Of a stretch of 32,000 bases of DNA, positions 16,116-17,497 are shown piece after piece. Under the pieces are notes generated by a model that saw only the letters and a list, made by a program, of their open reading frames with translations, was not told the DNA's origin and did not search any database. Origin of the DNA: an archaeon (GTDB lineage: Archaea > Iainarchaeota > Iainarchaeia > Iainarchaeales > 1-14-0-10-31-34). Numbering within the stretch: the first letter of the stretch is position 1; every line of letters begins with the position of its first letter. The translations under genes and the position numbers were made by a program. The stretch is from positions 270,001 through 302,000 of the forward strand of contig JAJRVL010000004.1 in NCBI GenBank assembly GCA_024277355.1, in the 5' to 3' direction.

Positions 16116-17096
16116 TTATTTTTTTAATTTAATGTTTAATTCATCTAATTGTTTTTCTGAAACTTTACTTGGAGCTTCTTCTAATAAACCCATTGCATTT
16201 TTGTTTTTTGGAAAAGCAATTACTTCTCGAATTGAATTACTTTCAGTTAAAATCATTATTAATCTATCTAATCCAATTGCAAAACCTCCATGAGGAGGAG
16301 CACCATACTGAAATGCTTCCAATAAAAAACCAAATTTTTGTTTTGCCTGCTTTTCATTTATTCCCAAAAAATCAAATATTTTTTGCTGGGTTTTAGGATT
16401 ATGAATTCTAATTGATCCTGAACCTAATTCAGTTCCATTTAAAACTAAATCATAAGAACGGCTTCTGATTGATAATAAATCTTTTTTATTTTTTGATTCA
16501 AGTTTTTTTTCATCTTCTTTGTTAAACTGAGTAAAAGGATGATGACATGGAACAATTTCTTTTTCGTCATTTAATTCAAATAAAGGAAAATCCGTAACCC
16601 ACAAAAAAGAATTCTTTAATTTTGTTTCTTTTCTTGTATCAGGTTTATCTGTTTTGTATTTTTCCATTGCTTTACTATAAGTTATTCTTGGAAAAGGAAT
16701 TTTTAAGTCTTCATTTAATGCATTTTTAAAAACAAACTGCATTGTTTTTTCAAGCAAAGAATAAACATCTTCTTCTTCAACAAAACTCATTTCCAAATCC
16801 AATTGAGTAAATTCAGGCTGCCTGTCTCCTCTTAAATCTTCATCCCTGAAACATCTTGCAATCTGAAAGTATTTGTCAAAACCTGAAACCATTAATAACT
16901 GCTTGTATAATTGAGGACTTTGAGGCAAAGCAAAAAAACTTCCATTAAATTTTCTGCTTGGAACTAAATAATCTCTTGCACCTTCAGGAGTGCTTTTAGA
17001 TAAAATTGGAGTTTCAATTTCCAAAAAATCCTGCGAATCAAAAAAATCTCTCATTGATTTAATTATTTTATGTCTTAATAACAAATTATTAAACAT
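16116..17096 (-). CDS. aspS: aspartyl-tRNA synthetase, bacterial type, catalytic domain (lacks GAD insertion)
   Basis: 326 aa with [51 protein letters not shown] and [13 protein letters not shown]. Only 8 residues lie between DKPDTR and FLWVTDFP. Confidence 0.9.
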
Positions 17097-17497
17097 TTTT
17101 TTCTTCTTAAATCTAAATACCTGTATTTTAATCTTGTATCTTCATTTGCTTTTACTTCATCTTCTATTGCAAAAGGAATTGGTTCAGCTGAATTTAATAC
17201 TTCAATACTTTCAGCACTAACTTCAATTGTTCCTGTTTCAATTTTTGGATTAGAATCAGGTCTTTTTTTTACTGTTCCTTTAATTCTTAAAACAAATTCA
17301 TTTAACAAAGAAGAAACTATTTCATCAGTTTTTTTGTCTTTTCTTGAAATAAAAATCTGAGTTAAACCAGTTTTATCCCTTAAATCAATAAAAGCAAATT
17401 TTTTTTGGGCACGAATTGAATTAATCCATCCTTCTAACACTACTTTTTTTCCTGTGTCTTTTTCTCTTAATTCACCGCAAAAATGAGTTCGATTCAT
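17075..17497 (-). CDS. aspS: aspartyl-tRNA synthetase, N-terminal anticodon-binding (OB) domain fragment
   Basis: 140 aa reading RTHFCGELR...GWINSIR...FIDLRDKTG...[13 protein letters not shown]. It then runs out of frame (CLIICY*). It overlaps the catalytic ORF by 22 nt at an A7 run (17096-17102). Confidence 0.9.

Follow-up and report, generated by a model that had tools for sequence, protein, structure and literature searches.

A one-base break at the hinge of an archaeal aspartyl-tRNA synthetase gene probably reflects a commonplace data error or a very young mutation rather than programmed frameshifting or a two-piece enzyme

Introduction

Known split genes, such as those of Nanoarchaeum, are also split in related genomes; each part has a start of its own, and the parts are usually found at separate loci. 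A different kind of interruption is seen in AT-rich genomes, where a one-base change in an A-run breaks an otherwise intact gene. Such homopolymer lesions can be undercounts in an assembly, or they can be real, as with the poly(A) frameshifts of Buchnera and Blochmannia. For the poly(A) frameshifts of AT-rich insect endosymbionts, rescue by slippage has been proposed. [quoted passage not shown] Programmed frameshifting in archaea is represented by the fucA1 gene of Sulfolobus solfataricus, which consists of two open reading frames (ORFs) related by a -1 shift with an A-rich X_XXY_YYZ heptamer, A-AAA-AAT, in their overlap. [quoted passage not shown]

Here, we describe an aspartate--tRNA ligase (AspRS) gene, aspS, that invites comparison with each of these systems. 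The gene lies in a window of 32,000 nucleotides (the whole stretch of DNA analyzed, G000:C2:270001-302000) from the assembly of a DPANN archaeon, designated G000. This assembly comprises 1.13 Mb in 11 contigs, with a GC content of 28% and a completeness of 96%. Its placement in DPANN follows from the database names of the closest homologues ("Candidatus Diapherotrites archaeon" and "Woesearchaeota archaeon"). A sequence-only reading of the window had proposed that aspS is split at the hinge between its two domains and had offered three options, namely -1 slippage, a true split enzyme, and an A7/A8 assembly error.

Results

The aspS gene occupies positions 16116 to 17497 of the window on the minus strand and would encode 460 amino acids (aa) if its A-run were eight A's long, as judged from profile scores and synteny with congeners. 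In the deposited sequence, it is split into two ORFs that overlap by 22 nucleotides (nt) and are out of frame with each other. ORF1 (17075 to 17497, minus strand, 140 aa) carries the N-terminal OB-fold anticodon-binding domain, and ORF2 (16116 to 17096, minus strand, 326 aa) carries the class II catalytic core. The first 134 residues of ORF1 are in frame and end with RYLDLRRKK; six out-of-frame residues (CLIICY) follow, with the stop at 17075 to 17077. The frame is lost at a run of seven A's at 17096 to 17102 (minus strand, T7 on the plus strand; G000:C2:287096-287102), which reads A_AAA_AAA in the zero frame. The coding strand at the junction is AGA AGA AAA AAA TGT, and the run is exactly seven A's long. 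Relative to ORF1, ORF2 lies in the -1 frame, and either an eighth A or a -1 slip produces the hinge RRKKMFNN. When aligned to the congener G003, G000 has a one-base gap at the run, and one more A restores the frame. The frame is thus lost within a mononucleotide run and regained with a single base.

The joined 460-aa reading scored 687 bits against the bacterial-type AspRS profile NF001750 (NCBIfam; cutoff, 443) and 646 bits against TIGR00459. ORF2 alone scored 512 bits against NF001750 and matched from profile position 140, while ORF1 covers positions 3 to 139. The break therefore falls exactly at the domain hinge, between positions 139 and 140, and this confirmed the placement given by the sequence-only reading along with its two ORFs, its count of seven A's, and its -1 relation. 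Residues 1 to 134 of ORF1 hold the OB-fold anticodon-binding domain and, after it, the RYLDLRR hinge, and class II motifs 2 and 3 are intact in ORF2.

The joined protein shares the OB-fold domain, the RYLDLRR hinge, and class II motifs 1 to 3 with bacterial-type aspartate--tRNA ligase. It differs in lacking the GAD insertion domain (460 aa versus about 590 aa) and in being interrupted in this assembly. GAD (PF02938) was absent in that the NF001750 match came in two stretches that skip the insertion. Close homologues have PF01336 and PF00152 only, and relatives of about 590 aa add PF02938. AspRS proteins of about 460 aa without GAD also occur in congeners and in many DPANN and Omnitrophota homologues, whereas a 580- to 640-aa AspRS with the GAD insertion is retained in most of the order's other families.

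Asp/Asn genes form a cluster at 13128 to 17497 of the window that is kept across the genus. Besides aspS, it holds asnS for asparaginyl-tRNA synthetase (AsnRS; 13128 to 14426, minus strand), an asnA-like gene (14645 to 15588, minus strand), and a gene for an Lrp/AsnC-family regulator (15677 to 16111, plus strand). The remaining class IIb matches in the genome are this AsnRS, a class II LysRS on contig C11, and the AsnA-like paralogue, so the broken aspS is the only AspRS gene of the genome. With the genome 96% complete and no second AspRS gene in it, complete loss of aspS function would be lethal.

We next turned to aspS in relatives. Four genomes of the same genus have an unbroken aspS of 462 to 466 aa at the syntenic place, with 77 to 83% identity to the joined reading. 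In a fifth congener, aspS is cut by the end of a contig but continues in frame across the hinge. The codons at the hinge differ among these genes. G002 and G005 read AGA AGA GAA AAA ATG (RREKM), G003 reads AGA AGG CCT AAA ATG (RRPKM), G001 reads AGA AGA AAA TCA ATG (RRKSM), and the hinge of G004 is RREEM. The more distant G019 has AGG AAA AAA ATG (RRKKM) in an intact gene, and more distant orthologues of about 590 aa have RRPEM, RRGEM, and others. The two residues between RR and M thus vary freely, and the A-run is not conserved. The sequence-only reading had named such an outcome in advance as a refutation, which here falls on both recoding and a split gene: the comparison returned uninterrupted genes, different hinge codons, and no conserved A-run.

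The same alignment bears on the ATG that opens ORF2 (17094 to 17096, minus strand), which had been taken as support for independent initiation. This ATG is the codon of the conserved hinge Met of AspRS (RRxxM). The congeners and most of the more distant orthologues aligned have Met here, and three distant ones have Leu. As nearly all intact orthologues examined have it, the ATG does not count as evidence for a separate start.

A search of 5.8 billion proteins gave a similar picture. The 120 best homologues listed were mostly single chains of about 450 to 470 aa, with some GAD-bearing proteins of about 566 to 595 aa and a few shorter entries; the sole protein among these 120 that corresponds to the C-terminal half was the window's own 326-aa ORF2. 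Nothing in this search was closer than 83% identity, which implies that no second assembly of the population is present there. An exact lookup of the ORF2 sequence returned no record, and no hinge with six, seven, or eight A's was found in metagenome contigs.

We also compared the two halves of the gene for signs of decay, leaving the distant orthologues G019 and G024 out of the half-by-half comparison. Identity of G000 to its congeners was 69 to 77% in the N-terminal half and 80 to 86% in the C-terminal half, versus 70 to 79% and 79 to 83% among the intact congeners themselves. The terminal branch of G000 aspS was 0.13, and those of the others were 0.10 to 0.16. With no decay in either half and with catalytic motifs intact, the lesion must be very young if it is present in the cell at all.

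The A-run had been called a textbook X-XXY-YYZ heptamer. Where the two ORFs overlap, the zero frame does read A_AAA_AAA and matches X_XXY_YYZ, but the motif is not specific. In-frame A_AAA_AAA occurs 2,690 times in the 1,078 long ORFs of G000, and 868 of these ORFs have at least one copy. The genome has about 3,100 A/T runs of seven and 1,500 of eight per Mb. Given this density and the number of in-frame copies, the heptamer is no more than would be expected by chance. In agreement with the sequence-only reading, which saw no strong stimulatory structure downstream, the 100 nt following the site did not form a stimulatory fold (-11.3 kcal/mol versus a shuffle mean of -12.7 kcal/mol; z = +0.53).

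Genes in G000 have a G-rich Shine-Dalgarno (SD)-like signal at -11 to -6, with GGTGA, AGGTG, and GTGAT enriched 25- to 33-fold upstream of starts. The ATG of ORF1 is preceded by the SD-like AAGTGGT. Upstream of ORF2, we found no SD-like motif, just TTAAGAAGAAAAAA. A strict SD 4-mer is present in only about 26% of ORFs, so its lack at ORF2 is weak evidence against independent initiation.

We then took a census of similar lesions across the genome. ORFs of at least 100 aa from 1.10 Mb of G003 were compared with G000 DNA by tblastn, and the comparison was then reversed. With a single congener as the reference, at about 75% protein identity, the counts are approximate. Sixteen G003 ORFs matched G000 DNA across two adjacent frames, and setting aside shadow ORFs left 14. 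This gives about 12 to 14 frameshifted genes in G000, of which 12 need one added base, and about nine of the junctions adjoin an A/T run of at least six bases. In the reverse direction, there were six frameshift candidates in G003, nearly all of them shadow ORFs or gene junctions, and at most one to three remain. Several of the G003 candidates were dropped as shadow ORFs spanning two genes. An apparent frameshift at about 5157 to 5660 of the window was also dropped, as the ORF overruns a conserved tRNA gene. This tRNA gene (about 5180 to 5255, plus strand) is shared with G004 and lies directly upstream of a 136-aa ORF (5253 to 5663).

Several of the frameshifted genes could be named via their intact G003 orthologues. 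These encode Top6B (A8 in G000 and A9 in G003), a Hel308-type helicase (A7 versus A8 in G003), a T2SSE-type ATPase (at an A10 run), and a GT4 glycosyltransferase (at an A9 run). An adenine-phosphoribosyltransferase-like (APRT) gene, an NTP_transf_5 gene, and the gene for a 625-aa membrane protein (T6 versus T7) are likewise frameshifted in G000. A GHMP kinase gene (G000:C2:307949-308790, about 6 kb past the end of the window) loses its frame where one base is missing from an A-rich stretch (GCAGCAAAA-AAATCAAAAAAAAC). The lesions of top6B and hel308 lie near C2:419.45k and C9:12.8k, that of the AsnA-like gene near C2:285.37k, and further ones at C11:16445 and near C10:34.1k. The AsnA-like gene (archaeal asparagine synthetase A, an AsnRS paralogue), 1.7 kb from aspS, is split into ORFs of 71 and 239 aa by a change of TT to T. 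This one-base deletion lies at about 15376 to 15382, with no long homopolymer; four congeners read ATTGATTAT or ATAATCTAT at the site, and G000 reads ATTGA-TAT.

In-frame stops told a similar story. We restricted this count to ORFs not overlapped by a longer ORF, which removed opposite-strand shadow ORFs. Orthologue alignments contained 37 in-frame stops in G000, of which about 22 were convincing (examples are C2:246414, C2:266863, C2:410824, C3:38261, and C9:57619), versus nine in G003, which were mostly artifacts of N-terminal extensions and of which about zero to two were convincing. In about 22 conserved genes, G000 has a single TAA or TGA where G003 has Glu, Lys, Gly, Ser, or Arg. Compared with the G003 codon, about 11 were GAA or GGA to TAA or TGA, about seven were AAA or AGA to TAA or TGA, and three were TCA to TAA. 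The implied changes were G to T, A to T, and C to A only, with an asymmetry relative to the coding strand. No stop came from CAA, CAG, CGA, or TGG, nor did any come from TTA or TAT, even though TTA makes up 6.5% of codons. A spectrum without transitions is unlike that of spontaneous mutation.

A changed genetic code or suppression was considered for these stops and rejected, given that only about 22 of them are spread over about 710 genes and that no suppressor tRNA was detected with aragorn. Run without an intron search, aragorn returned 26 tRNAs in G000, none of them with a suppressor anticodon and none for Asp, Asn, Cys, Trp, Tyr, or Pro. The missing types are probably intron-containing archaeal tRNAs that aragorn overlooked. 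In total, G000 has about 35 single-base lesions that break ORFs without a counterpart in the congener, several of them in indispensable genes.

Long A/T runs also differ between the two assemblies. Runs of nine bases number 365 per Mb in G000 versus 655 in G003, and runs of ten number 32 versus 131. A/T homopolymers of at least nine bases are thus two to four times rarer in G000 despite its lower GC content (28.0% versus 31.4%). Such a scarcity in the more AT-rich genome is what homopolymer compression would produce.

Discussion

Taken together, these data point to a commonplace data error or a very young mutation in aspS and speak against both programmed frameshifting and a split enzyme. Both a programmed frameshift and a two-piece enzyme are contradicted by the intact genes of relatives and their variable hinge codons. 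Of the three options offered by the sequence-only reading, this favors the A7/A8 error or, equivalently, a very young homopolymer deletion, and it leaves evolved slippage and the split enzyme unsupported. We lean toward a sequence or consensus error as the most likely reading. The analysis shows the lesion, where it sits, the intact genes of relatives, and the excess of lesions across the genome, whereas the location of the break in the data, not in the cell, is something that we infer. Under this reading, aspS in the cell would be an ordinary gene for a single-chain 460-aa enzyme with a run of eight A's (AGA AGA AAA AAA ATG, RRKKM), and the deposited sequence would give that run one base short through a nonprogrammed homopolymer undercount in the assembly consensus. 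The lesion would then belong to a genome-wide set of single-base changes peculiar to this assembly and would need no special decoding. Lesions in the data are favored by the lesion pattern, the bias in sign, the association with homopolymers, the odd spectrum of substitutions, and the shortage of long runs. The locus shares with other homopolymer lesions of AT-rich genomes, whether assembly undercounts or the frameshifts of Buchnera and Blochmannia, a one-base change of an A-run in an otherwise intact gene, many sites per genome, and intact relatives. It differs from those lesions in that G000 also has many nonsense codons, which slippage cannot explain. Counting against a data error, only about 0.2% of the long A/T runs in G000 are affected. 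An unpolished long-read assembly would show far more, and short-read assemblies with good coverage do not typically err by placing stop codons in the consensus through substitution.

That low rate per run is more in keeping with rare genuine events than with raw error of long reads. Second in likelihood, although on the unlikely side, we place the reading that the A7 allele is real, as a very recent one-base deletion in A8 that is fixed or is a common variant in the population. DPANN archaea often lack mismatch repair, and real homopolymer length variants could exist in a population. The event would have to be young, as neither half of aspS has decayed, and the frameshifts have a shared character, with 12 of 14 of the same sign and about nine adjoining A/T runs. 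With a real A7, full-length AspRS could come from unselected, low-level backward slippage, either by RNA polymerase adding an A or by tRNA-Lys moving -1 on A_AAA_AAA. The run is a perfect slip site whose -1 product is the canonical hinge, and transcription insertions do concentrate in A/T runs in E. coli and Buchnera (PMC5574713). The fucA1 gene of Sulfolobus also demonstrates that a shift on A-AAA-AAT is within reach of archaeal ribosomes (PMC1616953). However, seven A's are short for efficient slippage, and relatives show no selection for the A-run. Many essential genes would also need breakage and rescue at the same time, and the roughly 22 nonsense codons are beyond rescue by slippage. We find it doubtful that the A-run frameshifts are real and that essential genes (aspS, top6B, hel308, and others) are kept working by routine backward poly(A) slippage of RNA polymerase or the ribosome.

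An evolved -1 frameshift of the fucA1 or dnaX type on A_AAA_AAA, which would set the level of full-length AspRS or yield a free anticodon-domain protein, appears very improbable to us. The zero-frame fit of the heptamer and its resemblance to the fucA1 site speak for it (PMC1616953). Unlike fucA1, aspS is an essential gene with neither structure nor conservation at the site: its downstream sequence folds no better than shuffles, the same heptamer is scattered in frame throughout the genome, and neither the shift nor the heptamer is kept in relatives, whose hinges are all unbroken with differing codons. Furthermore, a yield of a few percent for its only AspRS would severely burden the cell. We give even less credence to a Nanoarchaeum-type enzyme assembled from two separately made polypeptides, one with the anticodon-binding domain and the other with the catalytic core. 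As in such split genes, the break in this DPANN gene does fall exactly between two domains, and an ATG does open ORF2. However, that ATG encodes the conserved hinge Met, the lack before ORF2 of the SD-like motif that ORF1 has weighs weakly against a start there, and the 22-nt out-of-frame overlap is what a fresh frameshift leaves. No relative is split, the only half-length C-terminal protein among the 120 best homologues listed is the window's own, and aspS appears to have none of the traits of known split genes. Even jointly, programmed recoding and a functional split enzyme retain a slim chance at best.

The finding bears chiefly on annotation, in which aspS should be treated as one gene with a suspected homopolymer error and not as recoded or split. 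The roughly 35 single-base breaks in this assembly call for caution with claims of gene loss, recoding, or pseudogenization drawn from it. If the lesions are real, the genome would lend itself to testing how archaea tolerate poly(A) frameshifts. Routine rescue by slippage, if true, would give archaea a parallel to what has been proposed for insect endosymbionts.
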